From: a virus | Taxonomy: Duplodnaviria > Heunggongvirae > Uroviricota > Caudoviricetes | DNA: 57,958 nt | Direction: 5' to 3' (one strand) | Virus record (IMG/VR): IMGVR_UViG_2778261152_000005 | Span: 1 to 57,958 of that record | Shown: positions 16,898 to 57,467 of the stretch, piece by piece | How the letters are laid out: each line of letters opens with the position of its first letter | Numbering within the stretch: position 1 is the stretch's first letter | Program-made: the position numbers and the translations under genes | The notes under the pieces: generated by a model | Told to the model about the DNA's origin: nothing | Database searches by the model: none | Seen by the model: only the letters and a program-made list of their open reading frames with translations

Positions 16898-16955
16898 GCC
16901 TCACCCCCGAGGGGAAATGTGTAAGTATTGGGGGTTGAGGTTAAGACAACGATGC

Positions 16956-16970
16956 GGTCGGAATCCTGAC
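16956..16970. promoter_or_regulatory. Copy a (imperfect) of the GGTCGGAATCCCGACC palindromic motif, upstream of the holin gene
   Basis: GGTCGGAATCCTGAC about 60 bp upstream of holin start. Confidence 0.4.
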
Positions 16971-17051
16971 TATCCAATATGTTCACCCGGATCGAAAAAT
17001 GCTACTCTTTGTTTTTATATAACTTATGTTCAATCCATGGCGAGCTAAACT

Positions 17052-22064: not shown

Positions 22065-24971
22065 TTACCGCATACCAGGATCTACCTGATTTATCAGCGG
22101 CGCAATCCAGAAAAGATTGTTCCCTGGCAGCAGGGTACGCACGTTGTGCAGAACACGATCACCAGCATCGCCATTCAGCACTCCAGCGGTCACGTCGGTG
22201 ATGGTATCTAACAAGCCAAACGTCGGGCCGAGTGCGGAACCGATAAAACCACGGCTGGCGTAACGCGACTGTGTGCCGGTGCCGAGCAGCGCTCCCAGCC
22301 CGACCATACCACCGGAAGCTTTTTCAGCCATGTTGTTGTATTCCATTAGTGGGCCGAGAATGCCGGAGCGGTCAACACCCTCTATCACCAGTTTTTCAGG
22401 CGACCAGTCAACCTCACGCCCGTTAGCGGTTTCTTTCAGTGCATACGTCAGCGAGCCCAGCCCTATCTGGAATGCGGTACCGTAGTAAAACTGCGCCGAC
22501 CCTTCCTGTAACCCGCCCAGCGTTGCACGGTTGTATGACGCCGTAGCAAACGATTTAAACTGGAAAACCGTTTTGCCAAGCGGTGTGCTGGCCCACAGAG
22601 GCGTATCGCCAATGCCGGGGGTGATAACAGTATTGTTAACGTCTTTCAGCACAGCAGACTGAAACACGCCGGCGACATGCTGATCGTCCCATTTTTCAAA
22701 ATTACCAATATGCCAGCCGTCAATCACCTCGCCGTGCTTCTGAAATTCAGTGCGGATACGCGCGGCCATATTGTCGTTAATGCCGAGCTTCGCCAGGCGA
22801 CGGCCTGCGAACGAACCGGAAAGAATACCGTCAGACGTGATCATGCCGTTAACCGATTTGTTCATATCGTCGAAATGCCCCATCAGCGTGAGCTTGCCGA
22901 ACATATCGGTAACGCGCTCCATACCGGCTTCCACCGCTGTGGTACGTGCGGAACTGTCCACCAGATCGCCCATCGTACGCGCGCGGGTATGCAGTATTGT
23001 TTCCAGCCCCACGGCCATCTTTTTCTGTTCGGCTTTACTCGCAACCCATGCAGGGGATTTGGTTATCATAGCGCCATAGCCGCGCGTAACATTGCGGAAT
23101 CCGTTCACCATCACGCCACGCGCCAGATCAGGTATTGCCGACACAGTCATACCCCCCAGTTTGGTGGCAAAGTTAGCACTGCGCAGAAACGCACCGGCGC
23201 GAACAAAGAACGACGACGGATCGTCGGGCATACCGTACGTACCGACAAGGCGGTCGCGCAACGCAGTAATATCGCGCAGGTCGTTATCGCGGGCTTTTGC
23301 CAGTTTTGCCTGATCTTTGGGGCGGGAACGCATCAACGCGTCGTACTCGTCCTGGATATCCTTAAGCTGTTTTTCCAGCGTCTTGTTACCAAAAGTGCGG
23401 GTCAGCTCAACCTCTGCGGACGCTTCGCGAATATGGCGCTGCAGGACATAGTTGGCGTCACTCTCCAGGTAGTCTTTCATCAGGCGATCGGGAACACTGA
23501 GCGTACGGCCTTTGGTGCTGCCAGCAGATTTGACCATAAACACATTAGCGAAATCCTGCGGGATTTTGGCACCCACAATTTTGTTAATAGTGGCGTCCGC
23601 CGTAATTTCGGCCTCTTCTCTGGACATGGTTTTTTCGCCGCGCGACCACCAGTCAACCAACATGTCGCGGAATTTATCGCGCTCGTTGACGATTTTCCCG
23701 ACCTTGTACACGCGCGGGAAATAGCTGGTCTGCCCGATGGCCTTCAGTTCTTCATCCGGTGGTAACAGTCCTAGTTTCTGCTGTGCCACCTTCACACGGT
23801 TAACGACGGTGCGCATTGCCTGCGCCGTTTCCTGCACTACCGGGTTGGCATGTACATCACCGCTGCGCATGGCGCTACCCACTTCTTCACGGAACGACGC
23901 AAAACTCAGGTCACCGCCGTCAGCCTTATATTTTGCATACGCCTGTTTGTTGGTCACGACTACCGCTGCTTCTTCACGGCGCCAGCCGCGAACGCGGGTT
24001 TCCGCTGCAATGGGTGTTTCAATACCACGCGCATTCCCCTGGAGCGTGAAGTTATTCTCTGCCAGCTCCAGCGCTGTACGGCGTGCTGTTTTTGAAGGGG
24101 ATTCTATCAGGCGGGTGATCGGCGTCAGGTAACTGCCTGCCTTGCGCGCGGCCTTGCCGAATGGCCCCCCCGCAACCGGGGTTAAATCTTCGAGTGTCGC
24201 TTCGCGGATCCGCGCTGCGCCCACACTCCCCCCATCAGGAAGCGAAGCCGCAGCGGTATCCACCGGCGATGTTACGCTCATATTATCGAGCGCCTCCGCC
24301 ACTTCCCGCGTGGCCGCAGTGCGAACAGAAGGTGAGAGCGCCGCGCCAGCAGCAGCAAATACGCCACTCATCAACGCACCAGCTGCGACGTGGGAAGCAC
24401 TTTCGCCCCACGTACGAGTGATCTGCTGGTTATTCAGCGCAACTTCGCTCGCTGCGGTTGCAGCCGCACCGATTGCAACCTGTGACGCAATGCGCGCTGC
24501 CGCACCGCCCTGTGCGCCGGGGATAAACATAGATGCGACGGTAACCGGGTCGACAACGCCCGCAGCAATACTGGCTAACACACCCTCACCGCCAGCCTCA
24601 GAAAGCACGCGGCGGTCTTCGTTTTCATCGTCAATCTGCTGTTTCAGCCAGGCTGTTTCTTCCGGAGAGCGGGAATCCGCAAACGCCGCCCCCCATTGTT
24701 CGTACCCGTGCAGCTCGTTTTTATCCGTATATGGGTTATACCCTTCAACCGGCTCAAACTGCTTAGCCGGTCGGAACATCTGACCCAGCAGGTTATTCTG
24801 GCGGAATGCAGCGCCCCACACCGACGGCTCGTCCTGCTGAGGTGCCGGGTTGGTTCCTTCTGGCAATGGGACATCAAATCCGGATGATGCCGCCAGCACA
24901 TTACCTGCCGGGATGAATCCGTTATTCAATTCTTCAGGAGTGGCGTATACCGGCATTATTCTGTGCTCCAT
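22065..24971 (-). CDS. Internal virion / ejection protein (968 aa)
   Basis: Large ORF in the T7 gp15/gp16 position; start may be at a downstream Met. Confidence 0.5.
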   Translation of the reverse strand: MEHRIMPVYATPEELNNGFIPAGNVLAASSGFDVPLPEGTNPAPQQDEPSVWGAAFRQNNLLGQMFRPAKQFEPVEGYNPYTDKNELHGYEQWGAAFADSRSPEETAWLKQQIDDENEDRRVLSEAGGEGVLASIAAGVVDPVTVASMFIPGAQGGAAARIASQVAIGAAATAASEVALNNQQITRTWGESASHVAAGALMSGVFAAAGAALSPSVRTAATREVAEALDNMSVTSPVDTAAASLPDGGSVGAARIREATLEDLTPVAGGPFGKAARKAGSYLTPITRLIESPSKTARRTALELAENNFTLQGNARGIETPIAAETRVRGWRREEAAVVVTNKQAYAKYKADGGDLSFASFREEVGSAMRSGDVHANPVVQETAQAMRTVVNRVKVAQQKLGLLPPDEELKAIGQTSYFPRVYKVGKIVNERDKFRDMLVDWWSRGEKTMSREEAEITADATINKIVGAKIPQDFANVFMVKSAGSTKGRTLSVPDRLMKDYLESDANYVLQRHIREASAEVELTRTFGNKTLEKQLKDIQDEYDALMRSRPKDQAKLAKARDNDLRDITALRDRLVGTYGMPDDPSSFFVRAGAFLRSANFATKLGGMTVSAIPDLARGVMVNGFRNVTRGYGAMITKSPAWVASKAEQKKMAVGLETILHTRARTMGDLVDSSARTTAVEAGMERVTDMFGKLTLMGHFDDMNKSVNGMITSDGILSGSFAGRRLAKLGINDNMAARIRTEFQKHGEVIDGWHIGNFEKWDDQHVAGVFQSAVLKDVNNTVITPGIGDTPLWASTPLGKTVFQFKSFATASYNRATLGGLQEGSAQFYYGTAFQIGLGSLTYALKETANGREVDWSPEKLVIEGVDRSGILGPLMEYNNMAEKASGGMVGLGALLGTGTQSRYASRGFIGSALGPTFGLLDTITDVTAGVLNGDAGDRVLHNVRTLLPGNNLFWIAPLINQVDPGMR

Positions 24972-27676
24972 GAAAAGTAATTTTTAACCCTGTCCATGCG
25001 CTCGTTATGCAGACGTTTGTACTGCTCATCCAGCGCGCGGTGTTTATCTTTGAAACCGCGAATATCCTGTCCTCGCGTAAGCTCATCCTGTGCACGCTCC
25101 TCCCGCTCCTGCTGCATTTTCTTGTAAGGTTCCCAGTCCTCAAGCGACGGCTTCCAGCGCACCGGGCGCCCGTACTTATCGTAGAACGGCTGCACGGATT
25201 CGATGCCATCCTTATCCTTCATTCGCACCATGATGGCATAATCCCCCTGGCGCGCAGTAAGAACGTCGGGTGTAATTTCCAGATCACCACCGATACGGCT
25301 TTCAGGGGTTTTTGTATCGACAAGCGGCGCTTTTCCCGATGTGATCCCGAGCTGTGTCGGGCTGGTAGTTATCGTTTCTTTGCGGTCACCGTACATCAAT
25401 TGCTCTTTTTCGGCTTTCCACTGCGCCGCCTGCCACCCTGACGGACCATAGTCATAAAGCGCCTCCGGAGCGTACTTCATGAATTTAGCGTCACCGTTTA
25501 CCTCGCTGATACTCCATGTGCGGGCTACCTGCTGGTTGGTCATCTTCTTCGCCGCGTCAGCGTTACCGCCAGTTGTACGGTAGTTAATGTCATACAACGC
25601 CTGATAGTCATTACGGAAGCGTGCCGCCTCCGGCGTCTGGTCATCAGCTGAAGGATCAAACCGGAACCACTGCGACATGCTGCTCACCGCGGAATCCATC
25701 GCCTTGCTGCGGTCTTTTTTATACTCCTTAGTGCTCTGGGTTGACGCCAGCTGCGCTTTGAGTGCATCGGTCTGGTTGTAGGTCAGGTTCTGCGCCTGCT
25801 CGATAGCCGCATCAGACGCCATACCGGAATCGGTCAGCTGTTTGACCGTCAGGTAAAAACCCTGCATATCCTTCGGCATATCGCCGACAGACGCGGGGTC
25901 TGTATCGTACAGGCGATTAAACAACTCTGCGCCCTGCCGTACCGCTTCCGGGCTGCGGGCGCGGGAAATTGCCGAAAGCTGCGTTGTCACCTGCGACGGA
26001 ATAATGCCCGTCTGCGCTACCTGCTGCACAATTCCGTCATGTGTTCCTGCGTCATTAATACAGAAATTTTGAGCGGTATCGGTAGCATCGGCGGCTTTCT
26101 GCATGGATTTATTTGACGGGTCAAGTTTCTCCCCCGTTGAAAGCGCCTCGTTAAAACGACGGGCATCACGCTGCGCCTGAATTGCCGCATTACTTTTTTG
26201 TACAAGCGCTCCCAGCTTACCGTAAGCATCGAGTTTCAGGGCGTAATCTGGATCGTTGACTTCCGGCTTCACTTTGACGAGTTCTGCCTGCTGCTCTGCG
26301 GGAGATACGTACTGGATGGCCTGGAAGGTACGCGCATTATCAATGGCTATGTCCAGTTGCTTTACGGCTTTTTCCCCCTGCTCCCCATAAGCAAACATAA
26401 TCGACGCCTTATCTGGCATTGCATCAGGCACTTCACCGTTATTCAACTGTGCCATAGTATTATTGAGGATAGGATCGATTTGCTGGCGCAGGGCTGTACG
26501 CTGTTCACGGATCTGACTTTCGGCGATATTGTCGATTTTATTGACAGATACCGGATCTAGCCCCGTTTTATTTTTACGGTACCGTGACAGCCATCCGCGC
26601 GTTTCCGCCGGCAGCTTGCTGATAAATGCCGCTTCTGTGATTTCGCCCTTACGCGGGTCGCCCACTTTAGCAATCAACGTATCAACATTACCCATTCCCC
26701 AGTTATAAGCAGCGCCAGCCAGCGTTTCGGAACCATATTTGCCGTACAGTTGGTTAGCGTAATCGCTCGCGAGTAGCGCATTCTGATCTTCATCCGCCGG
26801 GTTGTATTCTACGCCGCGTTTAGCCGCCAGCTCTTTGCCTGTGCTCGGCATTAACTGAAACTTACCCTGAGCTCTCTCACCAGATTTTGTTACAGGCCCC
26901 TCAACCAGACTGCCGTCGGCTTTAAAATGCTTACCGCCCGACTCCACAATACCGATAGCGCGCATATCAAGTCCGCCGCTATCTTTAATCGGGAAGTCAC
27001 CATTAAGCCAGCCCTGCGGATTGGTTACCGCATAGTTCTGCGCACGCTGTTCCATAGCTCGCTGATCAGCCTCCGATATCGCCTGTAGAATTTGCTCGGA
27101 AGACCAGCCCTGCGCCTGGCCATAAAGCTCAATGGAGTGCTTACGCGCCCCCCGAATCAACGCCGCCGCCTGCGAATCGTCAAATGCACCGGCTTCCTGC
27201 TCGACTGATGATTTCACCGTTGCGTCAAGCTGCTGACGCTGTGCCTGTTCGGTTTGACTACGCTCAAAGCTGTTATAAGTGCTGGTTCGTCGAATCTGCC
27301 CGGCTTTCCATTGCGCATCAAAATACTGCAACTGGCTGGCAGGAACGCGTTTGCGGGCTTCTTCATAGTCGGAAGAATCCAGCTTATCCATATCAAGACC
27401 GACGCCGGAAGACTTGAACCCCTGACGGGTCGTAAGTGCGCCGGTCTCCGGGTTTTCCCAGCGGTCGCTGGACTTTGAGTCCAGGTCAAGAAGAATGGCC
27501 TGTGTTGCCGCCACATCCGCTTTATCCTGCACGCGCTGCACATCTTCAGCAGTCTGTCCAATGGCAGCGCCAAGCCCTGCGATCGCATTGCCGATTGCGC
27601 CAGCGTTCCCCACGCTGACACGGGTCGGATTCACCTGCGGCGTAACGTTGCCAAAATTACCTGTTGGTATTCTCAC
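24956..27676 (-). CDS. Internal virion protein with lytic transglycosylase domain (906 aa)
   Basis: …GIVESGGKHF…GKFQLMPSTGKELAAKRGV…AYNWGMGNV… resembles the SLT domain, as in T7 gp16-type proteins. Confidence 0.65.
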   Translation of the reverse strand: MRIPTGNFGNVTPQVNPTRVSVGNAGAIGNAIAGLGAAIGQTAEDVQRVQDKADVAATQAILLDLDSKSSDRWENPETGALTTRQGFKSSGVGLDMDKLDSSDYEEARKRVPASQLQYFDAQWKAGQIRRTSTYNSFERSQTEQAQRQQLDATVKSSVEQEAGAFDDSQAAALIRGARKHSIELYGQAQGWSSEQILQAISEADQRAMEQRAQNYAVTNPQGWLNGDFPIKDSGGLDMRAIGIVESGGKHFKADGSLVEGPVTKSGERAQGKFQLMPSTGKELAAKRGVEYNPADEDQNALLASDYANQLYGKYGSETLAGAAYNWGMGNVDTLIAKVGDPRKGEITEAAFISKLPAETRGWLSRYRKNKTGLDPVSVNKIDNIAESQIREQRTALRQQIDPILNNTMAQLNNGEVPDAMPDKASIMFAYGEQGEKAVKQLDIAIDNARTFQAIQYVSPAEQQAELVKVKPEVNDPDYALKLDAYGKLGALVQKSNAAIQAQRDARRFNEALSTGEKLDPSNKSMQKAADATDTAQNFCINDAGTHDGIVQQVAQTGIIPSQVTTQLSAISRARSPEAVRQGAELFNRLYDTDPASVGDMPKDMQGFYLTVKQLTDSGMASDAAIEQAQNLTYNQTDALKAQLASTQSTKEYKKDRSKAMDSAVSSMSQWFRFDPSADDQTPEAARFRNDYQALYDINYRTTGGNADAAKKMTNQQVARTWSISEVNGDAKFMKYAPEALYDYGPSGWQAAQWKAEKEQLMYGDRKETITTSPTQLGITSGKAPLVDTKTPESRIGGDLEITPDVLTARQGDYAIMVRMKDKDGIESVQPFYDKYGRPVRWKPSLEDWEPYKKMQQEREERAQDELTRGQDIRGFKDKHRALDEQYKRLHNERMDRVKNYFSWSTE

Positions 27677-36377: not shown

Positions 36378-36558
36378 GTGTAACCACCTGTAACCACTGT
36401 AACCACCATCTTCTTAACCTTTCCCTGAACGACTTATATATATATATGGGGTTTTTAGAAAATAGGTGGTTACAGTGGTTACAGTGGTTACAACCCTTTA
36501 AATTCAATTAGTTAAAGCGTAACCACCTAAGCGTTGTAGGTGGTTACAGGTGGTTACA
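36378..36558. promoter_or_regulatory. Origin-like region: about 10 copies of GTAACCAC/GTGGTTAC in direct and inverted arrays flanking a (TA)n tract
   Basis: Three direct TGTAACCAC copies, an AT-rich TATATATATATAT stretch, three GTGGTTACA copies, a GTAACCACCTA…TAGGTGGTTAC palindrome and further copies; abuts the primase gene end. Confidence 0.55.
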
Positions 36559-38721
36559 CAGATACCCAAACGCGTTGCACTTTGCCGTTAACACGCCTCA
36601 AAACTCGCGAATAGCCGCAATTTTGCAAAACATTGCTAATTCGCATTTCTTCACGTTTTCCGATGTGGCTGGGATTTAAGCCAATCGCATCGCGCAGGAC
36701 GTCACTAGCGCGTAAAAATTCGCAATTTCGCGGAATGTCGTTAGTCATCAGGTCTGGAGTGTCGAGCCATTTCTCTACCGTTTCGAGCCACGCATCCTTA
36801 ATGGTGTACTGCTCGTGGACACTCGCACCGAGCCGCTCAGCGTCGCGGAACTGGATACCGCCGAGGCGCTTAAACGTCTCGCGAGCCTCAGCCCACAGCA
36901 GCAGCAAATCGCGCTTAATGGCCTGCACATCGACTTTCGACACCTCAACGGGCAACCATCGGCGGTTACCGGTCTTGTCCGCGAGGAACTCATCCTCGTT
37001 GGTGGTACCGACGAACACCAGGCGACGCGGGAACTGCGTGGCGAACTCCCGGTATTTGGGGATCCAGTTCTCATGCGTACGCGTCACGAATGCCTTGATG
37101 GATTCCAGCTCTTTGGTATTGAGGCCGCGCAGCTCGCCAATCTCAGCCACCAGGCGCCCGCGCATCTTGCGTGCGAGATCGTCGTCTTTCTCAGCGAAAG
37201 AAATCTCAGTGAAGAACGCCGGATCGGGGCTCAGCGCTTCCACGCCGGAGGATTTACCGCAGCCCTGCGGACCGACGAGGATCGGCACCATATCGGCTTT
37301 AACTCCGGGCTCCAGCACCCTGCCCGCCAGCGCAGTCCACATGTACATGGATACTGCGCGGGTGTATGGCGTGTCGGCGGTACCGAAGTGCGTATGGTAG
37401 AAAGTTTCGATACGCGGTACGCCGTCCCACTCCAGCCCGTTCAGCCAGGTTGTCGCCGAGTCAAACGGCTGTTCGTCAGCAGCCAGCAGCACCACGTCGC
37501 GAATGAGCTCGCGCCCCACAGGTTTAAAGCCGCGCTTTTCCATCGTGATGCGCAGGCGCGCATAGTCCGCATCGGTGAACGCCTGCCACTGGCCGGAGCC
37601 TGCCGGGGCGAACATGATTTCGTCGCGGAACTGGTCAAAGCGGATATCTATGTCCACAAAGTCAGGACGCACAACGGCTTTGGCCGCGTTGCTGATAGTA
37701 GCCTCGATGCGGCCCCACTTATCGCGTTCGAACGCCGGCAGCGGTAACGGCTCGGCCACTTCGGTGCTGGTCAGGTCTTCGAAATCGTCGTTACGAATAC
37801 CGATGGCGTTAAGGAAATCGCCGTCATCGCGGTGCGCACAGCTGGCGTGCAGGCACTTGAAATGGCCCTGCTCAAAGCCCGCGGTACCGCCCGGGAAGTA
37901 AACTGTGCTCGTCGGGTCGCCGCCGGTGCTGTGGCCGTCTTCGAACGGGCAGCGGATGTATCGCTCGCCGTTCGCACCATCAAGCAGCGTCCAGCCATTG
38001 GCATCGAGGTATTCCGCCGTATCGTCCGTGGCACCGGGCGTGAAGGTTGAACGGTCGCGCATCTTCGTGCTGCCCGCTTCGGTGGTGACTGACACAGGCA
38101 GCTGTTCCGCCAGGCGCTGCCACAGCGTTTCGAGCTGGTCAGCAGTTATGGCTGGAGGCTCGCCCGGCAGACCGCCGTCCCATTCAATACGCGCGCCGCT
38201 GCTATGCGTACCACAGGCAACGAACTGCTGCCCGTTCGCCAGCAGCTCGATAATCCCCATATCACCCGCCAGACGGTGGATGCGCTTACGGAAATCGCCG
38301 TCAACGGCCAGCAGGTACAGGCATTTGTTGCTGTTGGCGCGCCAGCGACGCGGCGGCAGCTCGCCCAGCGCTGCACCAGCGTTTTGCGAATATCGGCCTG
38401 GACGTCTTCGTCTTCGCTGTCGCAGTCCAGCGCAAGCCAGCCATGACCTGTACGCACGCAGATGCCGTAATCCGGTTCGTTTGACCAGCGGGCAAAGTCA
38501 TGCTCAGTGACTACATGCTCGGTCCAGTCTTTAATCCCGGTAGCCAGGCGGTCGCGGTTATACAGGCTCGGCGTTTTGCCGAGCATTTTGAGTTTGCTAT
38601 TCGGGGATATGGTAGCGCCCGGGTTGCACATGACCGGCAGCAGCTGGTCAGTACGCCCCAGCACCAGATCGAAGTGGAACCATTCGTCAGGCGTCGCCCC
38701 CCAGATCTTTTTCTCTGGCAT
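36554..38721 (-). pseudogene. Primase-helicase (Prim-Pol N-terminal domain plus P4/VirE-type P-loop domain) split by a frameshift near 38364-38366
   Basis: Upstream ORF (38146-38721) carries Prim-Pol-like …GICVRTGHGWLALDCDSEDED…; downstream ORF (36554-38260) carries …GPQGCGKSS… Walker A; frames join at a C3/G3 run where one extra G would restore …LVQRWGELPPRRW…. Confidence 0.55.
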
Positions 38722-38724
38722 GGG

Positions 38725-38955
38725 TTACGCCTTTTTATCGTTTTGTGAGCCGTGCAGCAGCCAGTTGGGGTCGCAATCAAGCGCAACGGAAATTTCAAGA
38801 AGATAACGCGGGCGGGAGATAACACCACTTTCGATCCTGTTGATGGCCTGCTGACTAACCCCTGTTAGCTCAGCCAGCGTGACCTGCGTCATTTTGAGTT
38901 CCTTACGTCGCTCTTTTAATCGGGTAGCCAGAGTCATAGTTATTACCTCATACAA
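38725..38955 (-). CDS. Cro-like XRE-family HTH regulator
   Basis: 76 aa, …LKMTQVTLAELTGVSQQAINRIESG…; divergent from the cI-like repressor. Confidence 0.6.
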   Translation of the reverse strand: MYEVITMTLATRLKERRKELKMTQVTLAELTGVSQQAINRIESGVISRPRYLLEISVALDCDPNWLLHGSQNDKKA

Positions 38956-38991: not shown

Positions 38992-39014
38992 CAAATACAA
39001 CAAAAATTGTATTT
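38992..39014. promoter_or_regulatory. Operator-like palindrome in the cI/cro intergenic region
   Basis: AAATACAA-CAAAAA-TTGTATTT inverted repeat. Confidence 0.35.
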
Positions 39015-39057
39015 AATAGAGGAAGGCTATAATTTCAACTCATACAAGGTATTAAAA

Positions 39058-39681
39058 ATGTCTCTCTCAGCACGCTTTAAAGCCCGCCGTCTCGAACTAG
39101 GAATGACACAAGTAGAGGTCGCAAACGCTGCGGGGGTTAGCCAACAATCTATCGAGTCAATCGAAAGCGGAAGAACTCGAAAGCCACGTAACCTTTTAGA
39201 CCTGGCTAAAGCGTTAAAATGTAGCCCGGACTGGCTTCTGAATGGTAAAAACATCATGCCACTCACTGAGATCAGCACCCGAAGAATCCCTGTATTGAGT
39301 TATGTACAGGCTGGCTGCTTAACTGAAGCAAGGGAAGTTACCGATCTGACTGGGGATTTCGAGTATGTACTGGCAGACTCCGACGTACCAGAGACATGCT
39401 TCGCGCTGCGCATTGATGGTGACAGTATGCAGCCAGAATTTAAGGAAGGGGATATTGTAATTATTGACCCTGACTTATGCCCCACACCTGGAGAATTTGT
39501 CGTTGCCAAGAATGGCGGCCACGAAGCGACTTTCAAAAAGTATCGTCCTTTAGGGATTGGCATAGACGACTTCGAACTGGTGCCACTTAATCCTGACTAT
39601 CCGGTTTTACGTAGCGCCGACATGAAGTTGCAAATCATCGGGGTGATGATTGAGCACCGCATTTACCGCCGTAAACGCTAA
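39058..39681 (+). CDS. CI-like repressor (HTH plus LexA/S24-type peptidase domain)
   Basis: N-terminal HTH (…LGMTQVEVANAAGVSQQSIESIESG…) and C-terminal S24-like region (…ALRIDGDSMQPEFKEGDIVIIDP…FVVAKNGGHEATFKKY…); start taken at ATG 39058. Confidence 0.75.
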   Translation: MSLSARFKARRLELGMTQVEVANAAGVSQQSIESIESGRTRKPRNLLDLAKALKCSPDWLLNGKNIMPLTEISTRRIPVLSYVQAGCLTEAREVTDLTGDFEYVLADSDVPETCFALRIDGDSMQPEFKEGDIVIIDPDLCPTPGEFVVAKNGGHEATFKKYRPLGIGIDDFELVPLNPDYPVLRSADMKLQIIGVMIEHRIYRRKR

Positions 39682-40230: not shown

Positions 40231-40377
40231 ATGAAACCTGAACACCTCCACCGGCTGACGGGGCGCGACGTGCTCCTTTATCGCCGAAAACAATTCGACA
40301 TCTTCACCGGTCTGGCCCTCGCTACTGCGTTCGGCCTGGCTATTACCTTCATTCTCCTTGTAGCGAGGACTGCTTAA
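40231..40377 (+). CDS. Small membrane peptide (48 aa, not in ORF track)
   Basis: ATG with AAAGGAG upstream; hydrophobic C-terminal half; stop overlaps next gene start (TAATG). Confidence 0.3.
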   Translation: MKPEHLHRLTGRDVLLYRRKQFDIFTGLALATAFGLAITFILLVARTA

Positions 40378-41072
40378 TGCAAATCACCAAAGAACAAGTA
40401 AAAGCCTGGCATGCCTGTACTGATGGCTTCCGCTGGTTTCTGGATAAATTCCCGCAGGGCGGTGCGTATGCCGATGTGCATGGTGCACTGATCGCCGATA
40501 AGCGTTTCGATGACGCGCGCTGGCTGGTCGATAAGATGTACCGCACGCATCTGGATAAAGCTGAATTCATTCAGGCTGAAACTGCTACGACCGACAAAAT
40601 GGTCGGTGAACTCACCAGCATGGAACTTCCATCTGATCAGGAAGAGGGTGAGAACAGCTCCGGCAACTACGCCCGAATCGGCAGCTCCGGCTACGACGCC
40701 CGAATCGGCAGCTCCGGCTACGACGCCCGAATCGGCAGCTCCGGCAACTACGCCCGAATCGGCAGCTCCGGCTACGACGCCCGAATCGGCAGCTCCGGCG
40801 ACGACGCCCAAATCGGCAGCTCCGGCAACTACGCCCGAATCGGCAGCTCCGGCTACAACGCCCAAATCACCGCATCAGGTAAAGGCTCCGTTGTGGCTTG
40901 TGCCGGTAGCGTGCAGCGCATTGTTCTGGGCGAAAACGGCTGTGCATCAGTGCCGTGGCACGACGGGAAACGAACCCGCATTGCAGTGGCTTACGTCGGC
41001 GAGAACGGCATTGAAGCAAACGCCCCATATTACGTGAACGACGAAGGCCAGTTCGTCAAGGTTGAGGATTAA
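40377..41072 (+). CDS. Protein with eight in-frame tandem nonapeptide repeats (SSGYDARIG-type)
   Basis: 231-aa ORF; 27-bp tandem repeat at 40656-40871 encodes SSGNYARIG/SSGYDARIG/SSGDDAQIG units. Confidence 0.55.
   Translation: MQITKEQVKAWHACTDGFRWFLDKFPQGGAYADVHGALIADKRFDDARWLVDKMYRTHLDKAEFIQAETATTDKMVGELTSMELPSDQEEGENSSGNYARIGSSGYDARIGSSGYDARIGSSGNYARIGSSGYDARIGSSGDDAQIGSSGNYARIGSSGYNAQITASGKGSVVACAGSVQRIVLGENGCASVPWHDGKRTRIAVAYVGENGIEANAPYYVNDEGQFVKVED
40656..40871. repeat. 8 x 27-bp near-perfect tandem repeat inside a coding sequence
   Basis: Unit AGCTCCGGC(TAC/AAC)(GAC/TAC)GCCCGAATCGGC repeated head-to-tail in frame. Confidence 0.85.
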
Positions 41073-49202: not shown

Positions 49203-49387
49203 CACCGGTTATCTCTGACACTGACCTGATTAACATCAAAGAGGTTGAGCGCTCTGTTGGCCTGAAAAAATCCAGCATTTATGAGCGCATCAGTAATAAC
49301 GAGTTTCCGAAGCCTAAGAAGCTCGGGAGCCGAACCTCCCGCTGGGTACGCGGCGAGGTCGAAGAGTGGAAAAAACAGTTTCTTTAA
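49199..49387 (+). CDS. AlpA-family transcriptional regulator / excisionase
   Basis: 62 aa, …LINIKEVERSVGLKKSSIYERISNNEFPKPKKLGSRTSRWVRGEVEEW…; convergent with the integrase. Confidence 0.7.
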   Translation: MTPVISDTDLINIKEVERSVGLKKSSIYERISNNEFPKPKKLGSRTSRWVRGEVEEWKKQFL

Positions 49388-50646
49388 ATCAAACGAAGCT
49401 GGTCAATATAATCCGCATACCACTGCATCATTTCCCGACGCCCTTCCATATACAGGGCATGGTTATAAACCCCGCGTATATTGTTCTTGTCCACGTGGGC
49501 GATCTGGAGTTCAACCCAGTCAGAGTTGAATCCTTTATCGTTCAGGATAGTGCTGAACGTATGCCGGAAGCCATGCCCTACTACCCTCCCCTTATACCCC
49601 AGCGTGTGGATCATCCTGTTTATTGTGTTCTCGCTCATGACCTTTGACGGGTCATTCCTGCCGGGGAACATATTCACGTATCGACCTGTCAGCCCGTGCA
49701 GTTCTTTTAGCAAGACGACAAGCTGATCGGAAAGAGGTACCAGGTGCGGGCGGTCCATCTTCATAAATTCGGCGGGTATCTCCCACAGCCGATTATCGAA
49801 ATCTACCCATTCCCATTTTGAATGCCGCAGTTCGTAAGTACGCAGCCCCGCCAGCATCATGATCTGCAACCCCAGCCGGGGCAGCGGGCTCCCCTTGTAA
49901 CTCTCAAGCGCCGCGAGAAAATCAGGCAGTTCCTCCGCCGTCAGGAACGGGAAGGACTCTCCTTTATGCCCGGTCATTGCGCTATTCAGTTCGCTGACGG
50001 GGTTATACTTCGCGCGCCCAGTCGCAACTGCATAGCTGAATACTTCACCGCACCACCGGCGCGTTTTGGCTGCTTTCTCGGTTGCGCCGCGATTCTCAAT
50101 TTTGCGCAGTGCCCTCAGCATCTGGACAGGCTCGATTTCAGCAACTGGCAGCTTACCCACCGCTGGGAAAATATCTTTGTTGAATGCTTCGAGAATGTCA
50201 GAGGCATAGCCAGGCGACCAGCGCGGCTTCTTGAATTCATGCCATTCTATCGCGATCTCTTTTAACGTGATCGTCTTTACTGCCGCAGCTGCGGCATGGC
50301 TTTTGACTTTTACCGGGTCAACACCTGCCGCAACGTTACGCCGGGCCTCGTCGCGTTTTTCGCGAGCGGCCGCCAGCGAAACAGCCGGGTATACCCCGAG
50401 CGCCAGCATCTTTTCTTTACCGGCGAAAGTATAGCGATAGCGCCAGTATTTTGCCCCGCTGGTTTTCACCAGCAGGATAAGCCCGTTGCCGTCTGGCAGC
50501 TTATAGTCTTTCTCGGCAGGCTTTGCCGTCTCGACCTGTCGCGCGTTTAGTTTCATAGGTACCCGCCTCAAACTCAGATACCCGATTATGTACCCGTTTT
50601 TAATTTGGATTGCAACGGCAAAAGGTGGATTATGGCGGACAAACAA
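49384..50646 (-). CDS. P4-type tyrosine integrase
   Basis: 420 aa; N-terminal arm-binding pattern (…LPDGNGLILLVKTSGAKYWRYRYTFAGKEKMLALGVYP…) and C-terminal …GHGFRHTFST…; next to the tRNA-Thr 3' fragment. Confidence 0.85.
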   Translation of the reverse strand: MFVRHNPPFAVAIQIKNGYIIGYLSLRRVPMKLNARQVETAKPAEKDYKLPDGNGLILLVKTSGAKYWRYRYTFAGKEKMLALGVYPAVSLAAAREKRDEARRNVAAGVDPVKVKSHAAAAAVKTITLKEIAIEWHEFKKPRWSPGYASDILEAFNKDIFPAVGKLPVAEIEPVQMLRALRKIENRGATEKAAKTRRWCGEVFSYAVATGRAKYNPVSELNSAMTGHKGESFPFLTAEELPDFLAALESYKGSPLPRLGLQIMMLAGLRTYELRHSKWEWVDFDNRLWEIPAEFMKMDRPHLVPLSDQLVVLLKELHGLTGRYVNMFPGRNDPSKVMSENTINRMIHTLGYKGRVVGHGFRHTFSTILNDKGFNSDWVELQIAHVDKNNIRGVYNHALYMEGRREMMQWYADYIDQLRLI

Positions 50647-50709
50647 AACGCCTAATATGGCGAATTTAAAGGAAAAATGGAGGACTAAGGATGTTAGCGG
50701 ATTAAAAAA

Positions 50710-50755
50710 TGGTGCCGATAATAGGAGTCGAACCTACGACCTTCGCATTACGAAT
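50710..50755 (-). other. tRNA-Thr(CGU) 3' fragment (46 nt, anticodon loop to CCA), attachment core, not an intact tRNA
   Basis: Reverse complement ATTCGTAATGCGAAGGTCGTAGGTTCGACTCCTATTATCGGCACCA matches the 3' part of thrW from memory; the expected 5' D-arm half is absent. Confidence 0.75.
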
Positions 50756-50975
50756 TATAAGAATCCGCTTCTAATTCAAAGCATTACCCCATCAACACTG
50801 CGCTCACACGTCCCACCACATCAAAACATGTAAAGCCTTGCAAGCCATTGTGAGGCCTTATGTGTCTCAGTTTTGTCCCACTACGACCTGCACAGAAAAT
50901 AAGAAAATAGCGGTGATATCAAACAGTACAGAAGTCTTTTTTCTTTCAAATGGAGAAACTGATTAACCCGTTTAA

Positions 50976-51149
50976 TTGTACTCCTCATGGGCAATCAGCA
51001 GTCCTCAGAGTAATGGAATGGCAGAAAGGTTCGTGAAAACGATGAAGGAAGACTACATCGCGTTCATGCCGAAACCGAATGTAAGAACGGCATTGCATAA
51101 TCTTGCAGTGGCGATCGAACATTACAATGAAAACCATCCGCACAGTGCG
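50976..51149 (+). pseudogene. IS3-family (IS2-like) transposase C-terminal remnant, cut by IS1
   Basis: …[51 protein letters not shown] parallels the IS2 OrfB C-terminus from memory; the frame runs straight into the IS1 left end. Confidence 0.6.
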
Positions 51150-51204
51150 GGTAATGCTGCCAACTTACTGATTTAGTGTATGATGGTGATTTTAAGGTGC
51201 TTGC

Positions 51205-51480
51205 GTGGCTTCCATTTCCATCAGATGTCCTTCCTGCTCCGCTACTGAAGGCGTGGTGCGTAACGGCAAAAGCACTGCCGGACATCAGCGCTATCTCTGC
51301 TCTCATTGCCGTAAAACATGGCAACTACAGTTCACTTACACCGCCTCTCAGCCCGGTAAGCACCAGAAAATCATTGATATGGCCATGAATGGCGTCGGAT
51401 GTCGCGCCAGTGCACGCATTATGGGCGTTGGCCTCAACACGGTTTTACGTCACTTAAAAAACTCAGGCCGCAGTCGGTAA
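51205..51480 (+). CDS. insA: IS1 InsA
   Basis: 91 aa, [43 protein letters not shown]…; A6C slippery site near its 3' end. Confidence 0.9.
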
Positions 51481-51902
51481 CCTCGCGCATACAACCGGGC
51501 AGTGATGTGATTGTCTGCGCTGAAATGGACGAACAGTGGGGCTACGTCGGTGCTAAATCACGTCAGCGCTGGCTGTTTTACGCGTATGACAGGATACGGA
51601 GGACGGTTGTGGCGCACGTCTTCGGTGAACGCACTCTGGCCACACTGGAGCGTCTTCTGAGCCTGCTGTCGGCCTTTGAGGTCGTGGTATGGATGACGGA
51701 TGGCTGGCCGCTGTATGAATCACGCCTGAAGGGAAAGCTGCACGTTATCAGCAAGCGTTATACTCAGCGCATTGAGCGACATAATCTGAATCTGAGACAA
51801 CATCTGGCAAGGCTGGGACGGAAGTCACTGTCGTTCTCAAAATCGGTGGAGTTGCATGACAAGGTCATCGGGCATTATCTGAACATAAAACACTATCAGT
51901 AA
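51399..51902 (+). CDS. insB: IS1 InsB frame (expressed as InsAB' by -1 frameshift)
   Basis: …[33 protein letters not shown]…[46 protein letters not shown]…. Confidence 0.85.
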
Positions 51903-52236
51903 GTTGGAGTCATTACCGTACTCTCCTTGGAGTATGAAGACGTTACTCACTTTAAGATTAGCATCCTCAAACCACTGTGAATTTGCTCCCATACGGAAAG
52001 AGGTGACTCAGACCTACAAAAATTTGTCAGGCCCGAAGGGTATCTTGCGCCAGCATAAAATACTGGATATAACCTAACTATTCATTTTAGCAATAGCCAT
52101 TGCTTACGAGAGCTAGCTAATCTACGTAAATGCTAGGCATAACAGTGTCTTTAAAAGATATAGGTGGAATAAGTTCTGAAGTATGAGTGCTCTTCTTTTT
52201 CATCTATTCGTAATCAAAATGTGGATGTGATTGTTA

Positions 52237-55200
52237 ATGACAAATAAAAAAAATTTGAGTAATCCTTTTTCTACAGGCGGAGGCGGTGTTCATTTTGAAG
52301 CACATGTCCAAGCGTCTTTTGTTGCTCTAATGCTAACAGGCGGTAATGCACCTTGTCTTCCTTGTTGGCCCATAGTGGAGATAAATCTCCAGGGCAAGAT
52401 TGATGGTTTTGATACCGACGACTTGATCGTCGTTGTTAAAGATTTCAACAGCAATGAAAAACGGAAGCTATTAGGACAAATAAAGCATTCTATTTCATTT
52501 ACGCAAGGTAATGCGATACTTGGGGAAGTTATACAGGCTGCTTGGAACGATTTCAACAATCCTGACTTGTTTACCAAGAACAAGGATGTTATTGCACTGA
52601 TCACCGGTCCGCTCAGTTCGACCGATACACACAATGTGCTCTGGTTATTGAATCAGGCTAGACACACAAAAACAGTCGATGAATTTTTGAGGAACGTTCA
52701 AAAAGCCAAGTTCAGCCCGCCTAAAAGTACTGAGAAACTGGAGGCCATCCAGTTTCATCTGAAGATGGCAAACAGTGGGAACGATTTAACAAACGATGAG
52801 CTTTATGACTTTTTGAACCATTTCCATTTACTAGGGTACGATCTGGGTAATGAATCAGGCGTCGTCCTTTCTTTGCTGCACTCCCACATAGCGCAATTCC
52901 ATCAACAGTATCCTCAGTGGGTTTGGTCGCGGATAGTTGATATCGTACAAACTTGGAATAAAGATGCTGGCACTATCATTTCAAGTAAGCTACCTGAAGA
53001 TCTTTTAGATGTTTTCAAACAAAGGGTTATTGCTGAAATACCTGAGAAGTTGAGGTTAGTACAACCGGTAGTCAAAACCGACTGGACTCACCACCCAGAT
53101 GCCTCTTATTTAGCCTTAGCAGTGTTGATTGGGCAATGGAATGATAAAAATGAGTGTGACCGAAATGTACTAACCCAATTGCTTGGTATCAGCTATGACG
53201 AATGGCTAAGGAAGGCTCGAGAGATTTTACATAGCCCAGACAGTCCTTTGTCCCTAAAAAACGGCATTTGGAAAGTAACAAATCGAATGGAGCTATGGAG
53301 TCTTCTTGGATCCCGCATTTTTGATCAGAATCTTGAATTGTTTAAGTCTTCCGCGATTTCCGTACTCAAAGAGCCAGACCCTGCTTTCGAATTACCTGCT
53401 GAAGAGCGTTACGCTGCTAGTATTCATGGTAAGGTGCTGAAGTTTTCATCCACGCTGCGACAAGGTATAGCAGAGGGTTTAGCCATAATCGGGAGTCGGC
53501 CAGAGGTTTGCGTTAACTGCTCTCAGGGGAATGCTGAAACTTCCGTTAACGTCGCAATACATACAATTTTGACTGATGCAAACTGGGTTTTATGGGGTAG
53601 CCTAAACGGTTTGCTACCAACTTTGGCTGAAGCAGCTCCTGCAAAATTTCTTGATGCAGTTGAGAAGGCAATGCGTCAGACTCCTTGTGTATTTGATGAG
53701 CTTTTTTCTCAAGAAGTAAATGGTATCACTGGTGGTAATTATCTGACAGGACTGCTATGGGCTCTAGAAGAATTAGCCTGGGATGAGCAATACCTAGTAC
53801 GCGTCTGTGTTGTACTGGCCGAACTTGCCAGCCACGATCCTGGGGGCAAGTGGGCTAATCGACCATCTAACTCGCTTACTACTATATTATTACCGTGGTT
53901 TCCGCAAACGCTGGCATCTATAGAAAAACGAAAAGTTGCAGTCAACGTCATCTTGCAGGAATGGCCTGACATTGCCTGGAATTTACTCGTCCAGCTTCTA
54001 CCCGGTCACCATCAAACCTCTTCTGGGTCACACAAGCCCTCTTGGCGCCGAATAATCCCAGATGATTGGGAAAGCAAAGTGACTAATCAGGATTACTGGT
54101 TGCAGACATCTTTTTATGCTGAGCTTGCCGTCAAAAACGCCGGAGAAGATATCGAACGCCTTACCTTGTTGATTGATAATTTTGATAGCCTTCCATCTCC
54201 TGCTTTCGAACATCTTCTTAAGCACCTCTCTTCGGAAACAATTAATTGTCTTAATGAAGAGCAGCGAGTTGTAATTTGGGATCATCTTCATCGATTCGCA
54301 AATAAACATCGGCGATTCTCTAATGCTAATTGGGCTTTACCTGATGATCTGCTGACCAAAATCGAAAATGTTGCCGAGCAACTGGCACCTACCAATCCAT
54401 TCAACTTATATCAGCACCTTTTTTCAAATCGAGATTTTGATCTTTACTTAGAAAATGGCGATTGGGAAGAACGGAGAAATAAACTCGAATCAAGGCGCGA
54501 ATCCGCAATATCAGAAATTCTTAGGCAAGATGGCGCAGAAGGCGTTATTCGATTTGCAGATCACGTTTCTGCGCCCCATCAAATAGGAAGTGTACTCGGC
54601 ACTATCAACGATGATGTGTTCGAAAAACTTCTTTTGCCCCGTTTCCTCAATACAAAAGAAAATAAGTATAAGGCATTGGTAAGCGCTTTTATTTGGAAGC
54701 GTTTCTATCTCAAAGGCTGGGAGTGGTTCGACAATCTGGATAAAGCTGACTGGACTCCTGAACAGTTAGGCCAATTCTTTGCTTATCTGCCTTTTAACAA
54801 GGAGACCTGGACCCGAATCTCTCATTATCCTCAAGCTTCCGAGAACGAATATTGGGCTCGCACCGATGCAAATCCTGACCTGGGTGAAGGTGATCTTACT
54901 AGTGCCATCGATAAGCTGATTGATCATGGCAGACCACTTGCGGCAATCAATTGCCTGTGCAGGATGCATCAGACAAAGCAGCCAATCGATACTGAACAGT
55001 GTATCCGCGCTTTGCTTGCTGCCACTTCAACTAACGAATCTAGCTCCAACATGGATGGTTACAACATAACTACCCTTATCCAATTTCTTCAGACTGATCC
55101 CAAAGTGAATCCGGATAATCTTTTTCAGATCGAGTGGGCTTACCTTCCATTGCTCGATGGTCACCAAGATGCTGTGCCTAAGTTCCTTGAGAATAAAATG

Positions 55201-55779
55201 GCTAATGATCCAGAATTTTTCTGCGAAGTAATCCAACTCATTTATCGTTCTGACAAAGAAGACAATATGACAAGTGAACCAACAGATGAATTGAAAGCAA
55301 TCGCAAAAAATGCCTGGACTCTTTTGTACAACTGGAAGACACCGCCAGGAAGCCAATCAAATGGGACGTTCAACGGAGAACGCTTTACTGAATGGCTTCA
55401 GAAAGTTAAGGAGGGTTCTACGGCATCAGGTCACCTGGACGTTGCACTCAGCAAAGTTGGTGAAGTCTTGATTTATACTCCCTCCGATCCGAATGGCTTG
55501 TGGATAAACCGAGAGGTCGCAGCTGCTCTCAACGATCGAGATGCTGAGAGTATGCGCAGGGGCTACATGACAGGAGCCTACAACTCACGAGGTGTTTATT
55601 GTGTTGATCCAACAGGAAAACCTGAGAGAGAGCTAGCTGACCAGTTCCGGGCAAAAGCAGAAGAAGTGGAAAACGCTGGTTTTCAGCGATTCGCCGTTAC
55701 CTTAAGAGATTTAGCGGTTGGCTATGACCACGAAGCTGCACAGGTTATCAGCAATCTAAATATTGGAGAGGATGATTAA
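52237..55779 (+). CDS. Large uncharacterised protein (about 1180 aa), candidate accessory or defence-island gene
   Basis: Single long ORF (track start is TTG at 52231; first ATG 52237); visibly AT-richer than surrounding DNA; no P-loop seen by eye; N-terminus …NPFSTGGGGVHFEAHVQASFVALMLTGG…GFDTDDLIVVVKD… unrecognised. Confidence 0.7.
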   Translation: MTNKKNLSNPFSTGGGGVHFEAHVQASFVALMLTGGNAPCLPCWPIVEINLQGKIDGFDTDDLIVVVKDFNSNEKRKLLGQIKHSISFTQGNAILGEVIQAAWNDFNNPDLFTKNKDVIALITGPLSSTDTHNVLWLLNQARHTKTVDEFLRNVQKAKFSPPKSTEKLEAIQFHLKMANSGNDLTNDELYDFLNHFHLLGYDLGNESGVVLSLLHSHIAQFHQQYPQWVWSRIVDIVQTWNKDAGTIISSKLPEDLLDVFKQRVIAEIPEKLRLVQPVVKTDWTHHPDASYLALAVLIGQWNDKNECDRNVLTQLLGISYDEWLRKAREILHSPDSPLSLKNGIWKVTNRMELWSLLGSRIFDQNLELFKSSAISVLKEPDPAFELPAEERYAASIHGKVLKFSSTLRQGIAEGLAIIGSRPEVCVNCSQGNAETSVNVAIHTILTDANWVLWGSLNGLLPTLAEAAPAKFLDAVEKAMRQTPCVFDELFSQEVNGITGGNYLTGLLWALEELAWDEQYLVRVCVVLAELASHDPGGKWANRPSNSLTTILLPWFPQTLASIEKRKVAVNVILQEWPDIAWNLLVQLLPGHHQTSSGSHKPSWRRIIPDDWESKVTNQDYWLQTSFYAELAVKNAGEDIERLTLLIDNFDSLPSPAFEHLLKHLSSETINCLNEEQRVVIWDHLHRFANKHRRFSNANWALPDDLLTKIENVAEQLAPTNPFNLYQHLFSNRDFDLYLENGDWEERRNKLESRRESAISEILRQDGAEGVIRFADHVSAPHQIGSVLGTINDDVFEKLLLPRFLNTKENKYKALVSAFIWKRFYLKGWEWFDNLDKADWTPEQLGQFFAYLPFNKETWTRISHYPQASENEYWARTDANPDLGEGDLTSAIDKLIDHGRPLAAINCLCRMHQTKQPIDTEQCIRALLAATSTNESSSNMDGYNITTLIQFLQTDPKVNPDNLFQIEWAYLPLLDGHQDAVPKFLENKMANDPEFFCEVIQLIYRSDKEDNMTSEPTDELKAIAKNAWTLLYNWKTPPGSQSNGTFNGERFTEWLQKVKEGSTASGHLDVALSKVGEVLIYTPSDPNGLWINREVAAALNDRDAESMRRGYMTGAYNSRGVYCVDPTGKPERELADQFRAKAEEVENAGFQRFAVTLRDLAVGYDHEAAQVISNLNIGEDD

Positions 55780-56338
55780 TCTAAACACCTAAATGTGGAG
55801 AAACTGGCTGTCAATCGATGTTCCTGTCACAGACAGCCAAGTTTTAGTTATTCGCTGATCTGCACTTAGTTGATGAATATAAACTCATCTTAGCAACGTA
55901 CCTCTCCCTCTTGATTAAAGGTAGCGTACATCGCCCCGTTGAACTCACAGTACTAACAGTCCTCGTGACAGTGGTTATCTGTGATGTAGAGTCTGTGGAG
56001 GCGGTTCAAATCCTCTCAGGCAAAAATATGTAAAATCGGTAGCAGCTGGAAATCATTCAATACTCGCACTATCGAAAGTTAGACAGCCAGCCGTGGCTCG
56101 TGCTTGCATACGACGTGCTGCGGTTTCATTTATCTCCGACCGGAAACTTCTTATACAGAGTCGATACGCCAACATCATAGATGATCGCCACCTTCTGGCG
56201 AGAAACTCCTGATGCAATTTGTCGTCCGGCCTGTGCCTATTGCTCCGGCGTGAGAGTAATACAGTAAACTGTAGAAAAAGCCCATTAAACCTAATATAAT
56301 AATAAGTTACAGAATTATCTTTACTGAATAATAGATAT

Positions 56339-56884
56339 ATGAATATTAGTGAACTTAAAAAGTGTATACACTATGAAGTAATAGGTTGTAAACGCCCTTT
56401 CTCCTGGCGAAAAGCAATTGTTCGCGCAATAAAACACAGAAGATCACGTTATTTATTTTGGTGGCGCGTAGCAAAATATCTTTTTGATAAAGGCGGATAC
56501 CGGCGAAAGATTGCAGGAAAAATAGAACGCTTCATTCTTGATAAATACAATGTAACCGTTCCCTTAACTGTAAATATTGGTAAAGGGTTCGACATATCTT
56601 ATCTCAATGGCGTTGTTATCGGTCACAAAGTTACAATAGGTGAAAATTGTTCAATTAAGCCTGGGGTAACTATTGGACTTCGCGGTGAATTTAATGATAT
56701 GGATATTGTCATAGGAAATAATGTAACCATTGGCTGTAACGCCACCATCCTTGGTGGCAAAGTGCATATAGGGAATAATGTAAAAATAGGAGCTCATGCA
56801 TTGGTACTGCATGACATTCCTGATGACTCCACATTCATTACCAAATTTCACTCTGAAATTATTTATAATTCATCTCACACATAA
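56339..56884 (+). CDS. Hexapeptide-repeat (left-handed beta-helix) acetyltransferase
   Basis: …VIGHKVTIGENCSIKPGVTIGLRG…IVIGNNVTIGCNATILGGKVHIGNNVKIGAHALVL… is a run of hexapeptide repeats; very AT-rich. Confidence 0.7.
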   Translation: MNISELKKCIHYEVIGCKRPFSWRKAIVRAIKHRRSRYLFWWRVAKYLFDKGGYRRKIAGKIERFILDKYNVTVPLTVNIGKGFDISYLNGVVIGHKVTIGENCSIKPGVTIGLRGEFNDMDIVIGNNVTIGCNATILGGKVHIGNNVKIGAHALVLHDIPDDSTFITKFHSEIIYNSSHT

Positions 56885-56894
56885 TTCCGTTTAA

Positions 56895-57467
56895 TCACAG
56901 CTCAGGCCATACGATATCCGGGGCTGTATTTATATCAATCCGACTCACTAATACCCGGTATTTTTTCCAGGAAGATAGCATCGAGACCTCCTCATCAGTT
57001 GCCATTTCAAAATTAACAGCATCCTGCAGAATTGTTATGTTATCAGTCGCTTCCTGGATTAATCTTGTCTTTTTCTCTTCCGCCTCCCGGATCCGGAAGA
57101 GTTTTTCTGCTTCCGTATCCTTCACCCAGGCTGTGCCGTTCCACTTCTGAAACTCCCCTCCCGGCGACAACCAGGTGACATTTTCCGGTAATGGGCCAAG
57201 TTCAGAAATAAATAACGCGTCGCCGGAAGCCACGTCATAGACGGTTTTACCCCGATGGTCTTCAACGAGATGCCACGATGCCTCATCACTGTTGAAAACA
57301 GCCACAAAGCCAGCAGGAATATCTGGCGGTGCAATATCGGTACTGTTTGCTGGCAGACCTGTATGAGGTGGAATATATGCGTCACCGTCACCAATAAATT
57401 CATTAGTTCCGGCCAGCAGATTATAAATTTTGATGGTTCGTGATTGTTCACTCATTCTGAATGCCAT
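56895..57467 (-). CDS. Tail fibre assembly protein (Tfa-like)
   Basis: 190 aa resembling lambda-type Tfa chaperones; directly downstream of the side tail fibre gene. Confidence 0.75.

Follow-up and report, generated by a model that had tools for sequence, protein, structure and literature searches.

The protein family in which a Prim-Pol primase is joined to a VapE/D5-type helicase is already known, as is the gene context in which it is found here. The same two-part architecture and fold are shared by pRN1 ORF904, the NrS-1 primase-polymerase, staphylococcal PriRep1, ASFV PrimPol and the poxvirus D5/E5 proteins; in sequence, these fusions of a Prim-Pol with an SF3/D5-type helicase are distant relatives only, at 10-21% identity in structural alignments of a predicted model. 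The closest isolated phages are the Yersinia phages YeP4, YeP5 and YeP6, which are inducible temperate podophages (PMC6548840). In these phages a single gene annotated as 'DNA primase' encodes a protein with 71.7% amino-acid identity over its full length to the one studied here, and they share its type of replication module, with DNA polymerase I, DUF2800, DUF2815 and a repressor. In a paper on APSE, such modules are compared with the early genes of the phages BPP-1, Bcep and Xfas53 (PMC8579659). In this study, we analysed a primase-helicase gene of this family in 57,958 nucleotides of viral DNA (IMG/VR record IMGVR_UViG_2778261152_000005; this whole stretch is called the window below), and we suggest that very probably a real, lineage-inherited deletion of one T in codon 118 has inactivated the primase-helicase of an E. 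coli prophage. YeP4-6 are inducible, have another host and are more distant in sequence, whereas the inducibility of the window prophage is predicted to be impaired.

The sequence identifies the host as E. coli: on the left, the flank (paoC-paoD) matches a complete E. coli genome at 100% identity, and on the right it matches others at 98.7-100%. The prophage, which is of the temperate podophage type, lies at about 18-50.6 kb in the window; it shows synteny with STEC383 and B379, to which its nucleotide identity is about 86%. It carries integrase, SNF2, VRR-NUC, DNA polymerase, DUF2815 and DUF2800 genes, together with a LexA-type repressor, a cro-like HTH gene and the primase-helicase, which are followed by portal, capsid, internal virion protein, terminase and tail fibre genes. 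The repressor is 96.6% identical to the 'LexA family protein' of STEC383, and the cro-like HTH protein has the same amino-acid sequence as its STEC383 counterpart (100% identity), with the same gene order in E. coli relatives; the ATG of the primase-helicase (38721) lies a few bases past the cro-like HTH stop codon. Directly past the primase-helicase stop codon there is a cluster of iterons, and 9 of the 26 window-wide iteron matches (at most one mismatch) fall within these 180 bp, with 8.8 expected in the whole window. The GTAACCACC iteron cluster is a putative phage replication origin. The coordinates of these features are given in Table 1.

Table 1. Features of the primase-helicase locus, with positions in the window
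Feature	Position	Strand	Basis
LexA/CI-type repressor (HTH and S24 peptidase), divergently transcribed	39007..39681	+	Pfam Peptidase_S24, HTH_3
cro-like HTH gene, directly upstream, same orientation	38725..38955	-	Pfam HTH_3, E 1.6e-14
Upstream ORF, 191 aa	38721..38146	-	ORF list, three-frame translation
Prim-Pol (archaeo-eukaryotic primase) domain, residues 53-184 after repair	38171..38565	-	Pfam PF09250
Codon 118 remnant with the 1-bp deletion (coding strand C-G)	38369..38370	-	tblastn, alignments
Downstream frame, residues 119-722	36554..38368	-	tblastn, ORF list
568-aa ORF from the first start codon, ATG 38260 (Met155)	38260..36554	-	ORF list
VapE/VirE-like P-loop helicase domain, residues 427-626	36845..37444	-	Pfam PF05272
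Walker A GPQGCGKS, residues 484-491	37273..37250	-	Motif in helicase domain
Nine GTAACCAC(C) iterons, direct and inverted arrays around AT-rich (TA)7	36379..36558		Tandem Repeats Finder, sequence

The gene for the primase-helicase lies on the minus strand and is divided between two reading frames that are offset by one base, as seen in the ORF list and in a three-frame translation. An earlier reading made from the sequence alone (the sequence-only reading) had placed a single-base frame change within 38333-38380, and our tblastn results, obtained with the 28 annotated proteins of the syntenic prophage of E. coli STEC383 (NZ_CP091026) as queries, bear this out. With the intact 725-aa STEC383 protein, residues 1-117 align to 38721..38371 (97.4% identity) and residues 119-722 to 38368..36557 (96.2% identity), and just two bases, 38370 and 38369, are left between both frames for codon 118. 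Since residues 1-117 and 119-722 match one homologue, the split represents homology across a frame change and not a chance pattern. The 191-aa ORF is made up of primase-helicase residues 1-117 and 74 out-of-frame residues, with its stop codon at 38148..38146, while the downstream frame is open from 38500, and the two frames overlap for 352 nt. The locus has the make-up of a frameshift pseudogene, in that the homologues form one continuous ORF and both halves align here in frames one base apart; when the missing T is put back, a primase-helicase of 722 aa results.

Intact copies of the same gene are found in E. coli STEC383 (WP_059328802.1, 725 aa), Citrobacter koseri and Enterobacter hormaechei (the latter two proteins 97-98% identical), and they lie in the same context, with a LexA-type repressor, a cro-like HTH gene, the primase-helicase and then the portal and capsid module. 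The window allele shows 96-98% amino-acid identity to these enterobacterial relatives on both sides of the break; their genes are uninterrupted, whereas codon 118 of the window allele is short of one T. In 103 E. coli genomes there is a stretch that spans at least 80% of the primase-helicase gene, and each of the 30 matches listed has one annotated feature there, a 'VapE domain-containing protein'. The four E. coli loci that were examined are single CDSs of 722-730 aa, and 126 of the 134 fetched protein relatives are 700-799 aa long. Megablast against a phage collection gave no match, and a plasmid collection gave one 87% match, from Enterobacter. A comparison with intact homologues had been proposed as a check in the sequence-only reading; it returned single ORFs, and none with two genes at residue 118. 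One further relative (P0084, 571 aa), which starts at the same Met155, was considered as an independent truncation and rejected as an artefact of a 10-N gap in a metagenome scaffold. The sole assembly gap in the fetched region of this unrelated scaffold falls exactly at the break position.

On the coding strand, the window reads CTG GTG CAG C-G CTG GGC GAG, and in alignments the E. coli relatives read CAG CTG TTT/CTT/CTG GGC there. We scanned public collections with the window's own 19 + 18 flanking bases (37 in total) around an optional middle base. All 18 public loci with identical flanks (14 viral and 4 metagenome) read T, CAGCTGCTGGGC, so that CAG CTG CTG GGC stands against CAG C-G CTG GGC in the window, and the deletion was seen in 0/18; with a looser pattern, 28/28 viral contigs keep the full six bases from CAG to GGC, which gives 46 relatives with the same local sequence that are read with the T. 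Because all 18 identical-flank relatives carry a T there, the lost base is, by this comparison, the T of codon 118 (CTG, Leu), an A on the plus strand, between 38370 and 38369. With the T the site is CAGCTGCTGG, and with the deletion it is CAGCGCTGG; the loss turns an 8-bp palindrome, GCAGCTGC, into CAGCGCTG.

The sequence-only reading had put the change at a C3/G3 run and had proposed that one extra G would give a continuous LVQRWGEL product, and neither claim can be upheld. The G3/C3 run, at 38364-38366, lies three bases downstream of the lost T and has the same length as in the 18 identical-flank relatives. The lost T itself sits between C and G, with no homopolymer there, and for this reason the change is not one of homopolymer length; no indel in a run of identical bases is involved. 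The fetched protein relatives read LVQLLGEL (26), LVQLFGEL (10) or close variants of these, and QRW is absent at the break from all of them. The extra-G repair (QRWGEL) was therefore rejected, and the intact product, to judge from these relatives, is ...LVQLLGEL... and not ...LVQRWGEL.... The earlier placement of the break was off by three to six bases. The ancestral state is read from relatives and not from a direct ancestor, the closest intact protein being 97.8% identical. When the repaired protein was looked up as an exact match, with L, R, Q or RW in place of the broken codon, no otherwise identical intact allele was returned, and a scan of genome contigs returned nothing above 91% amino-acid identity.

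It had also been claimed that a Prim-Pol and a VirE-type P-loop domain lie in the two offset frames. That they are two domains of one gene has held up, whereas the idea that the break separates the two has not: the break cuts the Prim-Pol catalytic domain itself and not the primase/helicase boundary, because Pfam places the domain at residues 53-184 and invariant residues are found on both sides of the break. A Pfam scan of the full-length protein missed the Prim-Pol, which was recovered when the N-terminus was scanned alone. After repair, the N-terminus matches PF09250 with 43.6 bits (E 5.6e-11, residues 53-184; gathering threshold 22.8 bits) and belongs to the family; as encoded in the window it does not, as the 191-aa fragment, which covers only positions 19-68 of the 158 in the profile, scores 20.3 bits, below the cut-off, and Pfam Prim-Pol does not match the 568-aa ORF. 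In an alignment of 34 homologues, which spans 62-98% identity, D99 and D101 of the DxD motif (38427..38419, upstream of the break) are invariant, as are R126, N130, S131, K146, E159 and H173, all of which lie downstream of it. A catalytic role of D99, D101, E159 and H173 is suggested by the Prim-Pol family. In the AlphaFold model of an intact homologue that is 97.5% identical (P0001; pLDDT 84-94 over residues 10-215), D99 and D101 are located on strand 95-101, and the break falls at the end of helix 105-119. The N-terminal domain of this model has the prim-pol fold of archaeo-eukaryotic primases: Foldseek matched it to the structures of pRN1 ORF904 (1rni, 1ro0, 3m1m; target TM 0.54-0.56 for 1ro0/1rni, probability 1.00) and NrS-1 (6a9w).

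The boundary between primase and helicase lies near residue 312-327, judged from relatives that share only one half; the APSE and Xenorhabdus loci share only residues 312-719. The helicase part belongs to Pfam PF05272 (VapE-like_dom, formerly VirE), with 204.9 bits against a threshold of 25 bits. Its sole solved sequence relative is PriRep1 (PDB 7pds_A, E 6.8e-33, residues 394-656), which was also found by Foldseek with the C-terminal part (7pds, E 9e-19), and the ASFV and poxvirus primase-helicases were found more weakly. PHROGs annotates one part as DNA primase and the other as DNA helicase.

Taken together, we propose the following for this locus. The early operon leads from a cro-like regulator to a 722-aa replication protein and on to the iteron-rich putative origin, and the replication protein combines an N-terminal Prim-Pol primase with a C-terminal VapE/VirE helicase of the poxvirus D5/SF3 type. 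With one T deleted from codon 118 in this lineage (CTG to C-G), ribosomes on an mRNA made from the early promoter, coming from the normal start, would be off frame after Gln117, add 74 wrong residues and stop at 38146, and the truncated product would keep the DxD (D99/D101) without the rest of the primase fold and without the whole helicase. The remaining frame could start only at Met155, where the Shine-Dalgarno sequence would be poorly placed, and its product would be made without D99/D101, so that an intact primase site and the helicase would not occur together in any one protein. Since the sole primase-helicase of the prophage is broken, beside the putative origin, the phage is predicted to be unable to start its own replication after induction, though as part of the chromosome it would go on being replicated passively. 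Primase activity and autonomous replication are most likely abolished, as the truncation within the catalytic domain suggests, and the view of the sequence-only reading that prophage replication would be crippled is a reasonable one; the host primase could in principle substitute.

A different view would be that the lineage keeps the deletion since the 568-aa, helicase-only product from Met155 is useful, be it as a domesticated helicase, through interference with incoming related phages or in replication with host-made primers, which may be likened loosely to the helicase-only gp4B of T7. This ORF keeps the complete VapE domain and the Walker A motif, the allele is common to several isolates, no damage is seen in any other prophage gene compared, and in relatives the N-terminal part and the helicase part behave as modules, as the APSE and Xenorhabdus loci illustrate. 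However, clonal descent explains the sharing among isolates that are nearly identical (1-3 differences in 7 kb), and the natural module boundary is the one near residue 312-327 and not at 117 or 155; Met155 lies inside the Prim-Pol fold. Moreover, only GGTGAT precedes the Met155 ATG, and it abuts it directly, so that a ribosome binding site would be poorly spaced, and no relative starts at Met155 except for the scaffold-gap artefact mentioned above. The 568-aa ORF could retain some activity, but with nothing specific in its favour in these comparisons we consider its retention for use unlikely. We are very doubtful, too, of the broader notion that the deletion is not mere decay, according to which either the 568-aa product or the grounded prophage would benefit the host, for example by blocking related phages at the adjacent iteron origin, or the palindrome GCAGCTGC, where the unrelated metagenome scaffold has its gap, would be a recurrent break or indel hotspot.

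The sequence-only reading had left the choice between an inactivating mutation and a homopolymer sequencing error. Single-base indels are the commonest assembly error. In the case of an error in sequencing or assembly, the true genome would have the T, or a four-base G run, and the gene would be intact; in keeping with this, no called protein on record corresponds to the 191-aa fragment, and a systematic error could be common to several short-read assemblies, though the T was read in the 46 relatives that are alike in local sequence. Against it stands the finding that the identical deletion is present in the GenBank drafts GCA_002462895.1 and GCA_015675075.1 and in the Logan assembly of the SRA run SRR33442627, which come from different projects and match the window over a 481-nt stretch with no other difference; at least six public contigs have an exact copy of the 568-aa product among their called proteins. 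At the assembly level the loss is thus reproduced in three assemblies that are not identical to the window at other positions, with 1-3 differences in 7 kb: one has a SNP at 33652 and another is without one copy of a 10-bp repeat at 36547, and because of these two differences we regard the carriers as separate isolates of one lineage. In addition, the lost base is a lone T outside any run, and over 2.9 kb and 5.3 kb the window flanks match independent complete E. coli genomes at 100% identity, with no indels reported. No other prophage gene is broken, this being the sole frame break among the 28 prophage genes compared by tblastn with the STEC383 proteins. A second apparent split, in the SLT gene, corresponds to an annotated pseudogene of STEC383 itself, and the ORF overlap 28149-28805/28600-30651, considered as a second frameshift, was rejected, as these are two normal genes, as in STEC383. 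We therefore hold an error to be highly improbable. As several isolates that were sequenced independently have this very loss, the deletion is most likely a real, inherited 1-bp loss, and the alternative of an inactivating mutation fits the evidence, with one gene that has a single-base frame change and homologues that are single ORFs of about 720-760 aa.

Full-length protein could also be made from a real deletion if a -1 ribosomal frameshift or transcriptional slippage took place, as in dnaX or in phage tail-chaperone genes. A -1 shift is indeed the direction that restores the frame, and the 352 nt over which both frames are open would give room for it. However, this overlap (38500..38146) contains neither an X XXY YYZ heptamer nor any homopolymer that reaches 5 bases, every relative examined is in frame at the site, hence there is no frameshift conserved among relatives, and homology changes frame within a single codon. 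With no slippery site, programmed frameshifting was rejected, and we see hardly any chance for recoding of either kind. That the break marks two naturally separate genes is next to impossible, since the only annotation of this sort, the 'DNA primase replication protein' and 'DNA primase ATPase' of Caulobacter phage SR18, was rejected as a natural split, being near residue 440 and not 118 and absent in the sister phages Jess A, RapA and BL94, which have one gene, while no relative is split at residue 118 and the frames here differ by one base within one codon.

Frameshift inactivation of prophage genes is commonplace, and other decaying or defective prophages with frameshift pseudogenes likewise have a single-base indel in an essential lytic-cycle gene which is clonally inherited; the STEC383 relative has an annotated frameshift in another gene, the SLT transglycosylase. 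Compared with other frameshift-decayed prophages, in the window prophage it is a replication gene that is affected and there is no other decay, but nothing about it is distinctive, and the locus is an ordinary prophage pseudogene. With every other gene compared intact and hardly any differences among the carrier isolates, the mutation looks recent, and selection is not visibly relaxed yet. This would be consistent with a recently crippled, passively inherited prophage.

For annotation, this means that the locus should be described as one frameshifted pseudogene of a Prim-Pol/VapE primase-helicase, and neither as two genes nor as a sequencing artefact. The prophage looks complete, yet it should be predicted to be replication-defective, which is relevant to users of the carrier strains. 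It also provides a natural mutant for asking whether this phage family needs its own primase, in which restoring the one T should restore induction.

The deletion in the primase-helicase gene converts one 8-bp palindrome, GCAGCTGC, which contains CAGCTG, into another, CAGCGCTG, which contains AGCGCT (window 38360-38380, minus strand). Just upstream of this palindrome on the same strand lies GCTGGTGC, which agrees at seven of eight bases with the Chi sequence, GCTGGTGG. In an unrelated metagenome scaffold (L039; ENA ERZ28642447 scaffold_1027), whose primase-helicase gene is 96% identical to that of the window, a run of ten Ns at about 600-620 aligns to 38360-38380 and sits exactly over the codon 114-120 region, the site of the window's deletion. 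This gap may be a coincidence, or it may reflect microdiversity of strains that breaks assembly at the variable palindromic spot GCAGCTGC.

Directly past the stop codon of the same gene is a cluster of iterons (see the table), which looks like the phage's replication origin. Read from the stop codon, the order is two direct copies that overlap it, one inverted copy and a set of three direct ones; an AT-rich segment containing (TA)7 separates these from three more inverted copies. In the STEC383 relative the AT-rich core is kept as in the window; however, the repeat units there are GTGGTCTAG and GTGGTCACAG rather than GTAACCAC(C). The 10-bp unit that overlaps the stop codon, GTAACCACCT, is one copy short in the SRR33442627 assembly (L038, position 2363) relative to window 36538-36558, and this difference represents iteron copy-number variation among isolates.

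Coordinates and context of features in the window
Feature	Position	Context	Composition
Iteron cluster (putative origin)	36379-36558	directly past primase-helicase stop codon	nine GTAACCAC(C) iterons
27-nt tandem repeat	40655-40868	within ORF 40377..41072(+)	7.9 copies, 92% matches
Second tyrosine-recombinase-like gene	2922-4286	adjoins paoD	
Prophage integrase	49384-50646		

The 27-nt array encodes repeats of the GSSGYDARI type, and two of the three differences between the window and the related locus L037 fall within it. In another such locus, L036, the counterpart of the ORF carries a Pfam YdhT_N match.

The prophage is located within a composite region, as observed at 2922-18000 and 50700-57958. 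After the second tyrosine-recombinase-like gene comes an island, about 14 kb long, of low GC content (37-44%). Past the prophage integrase lie an IS1, genes for tail fibre and tail-fibre assembly and an ORF of 1182 aa, all apparently left over from other mobile elements.

Many relatives match just one half of the primase-helicase, either residues 312-719 (helicase) or residues 1-321 (primase); these comprise the related loci L014-L018, L022, L024, L025 and L030 and the APSE phages (H64-H71). The primase and helicase halves are swapped as modules that meet near residue 312-327. The annotation of Caulobacter phage SR18 (L040, MN746332; 474-2781) divides the homologous gene into a 'DNA primase replication protein' and a 'DNA primase ATPase', two CDSs that overlap, with the break near residue 440. 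A single gene is present in its sister phages Jess A, RapA and BL94; the SR18 annotation may represent another frameshift or a sequencing error. STEC383, the closest complete-genome relative (L035, 31040-33747), is annotated with a frameshift of its own, which affects the internal virion gene with the SLT domain; the window counterpart (24956-27676) is an intact ORF of 906 aa. Separate lineages of this prophage type thus carry breaks in different essential genes.
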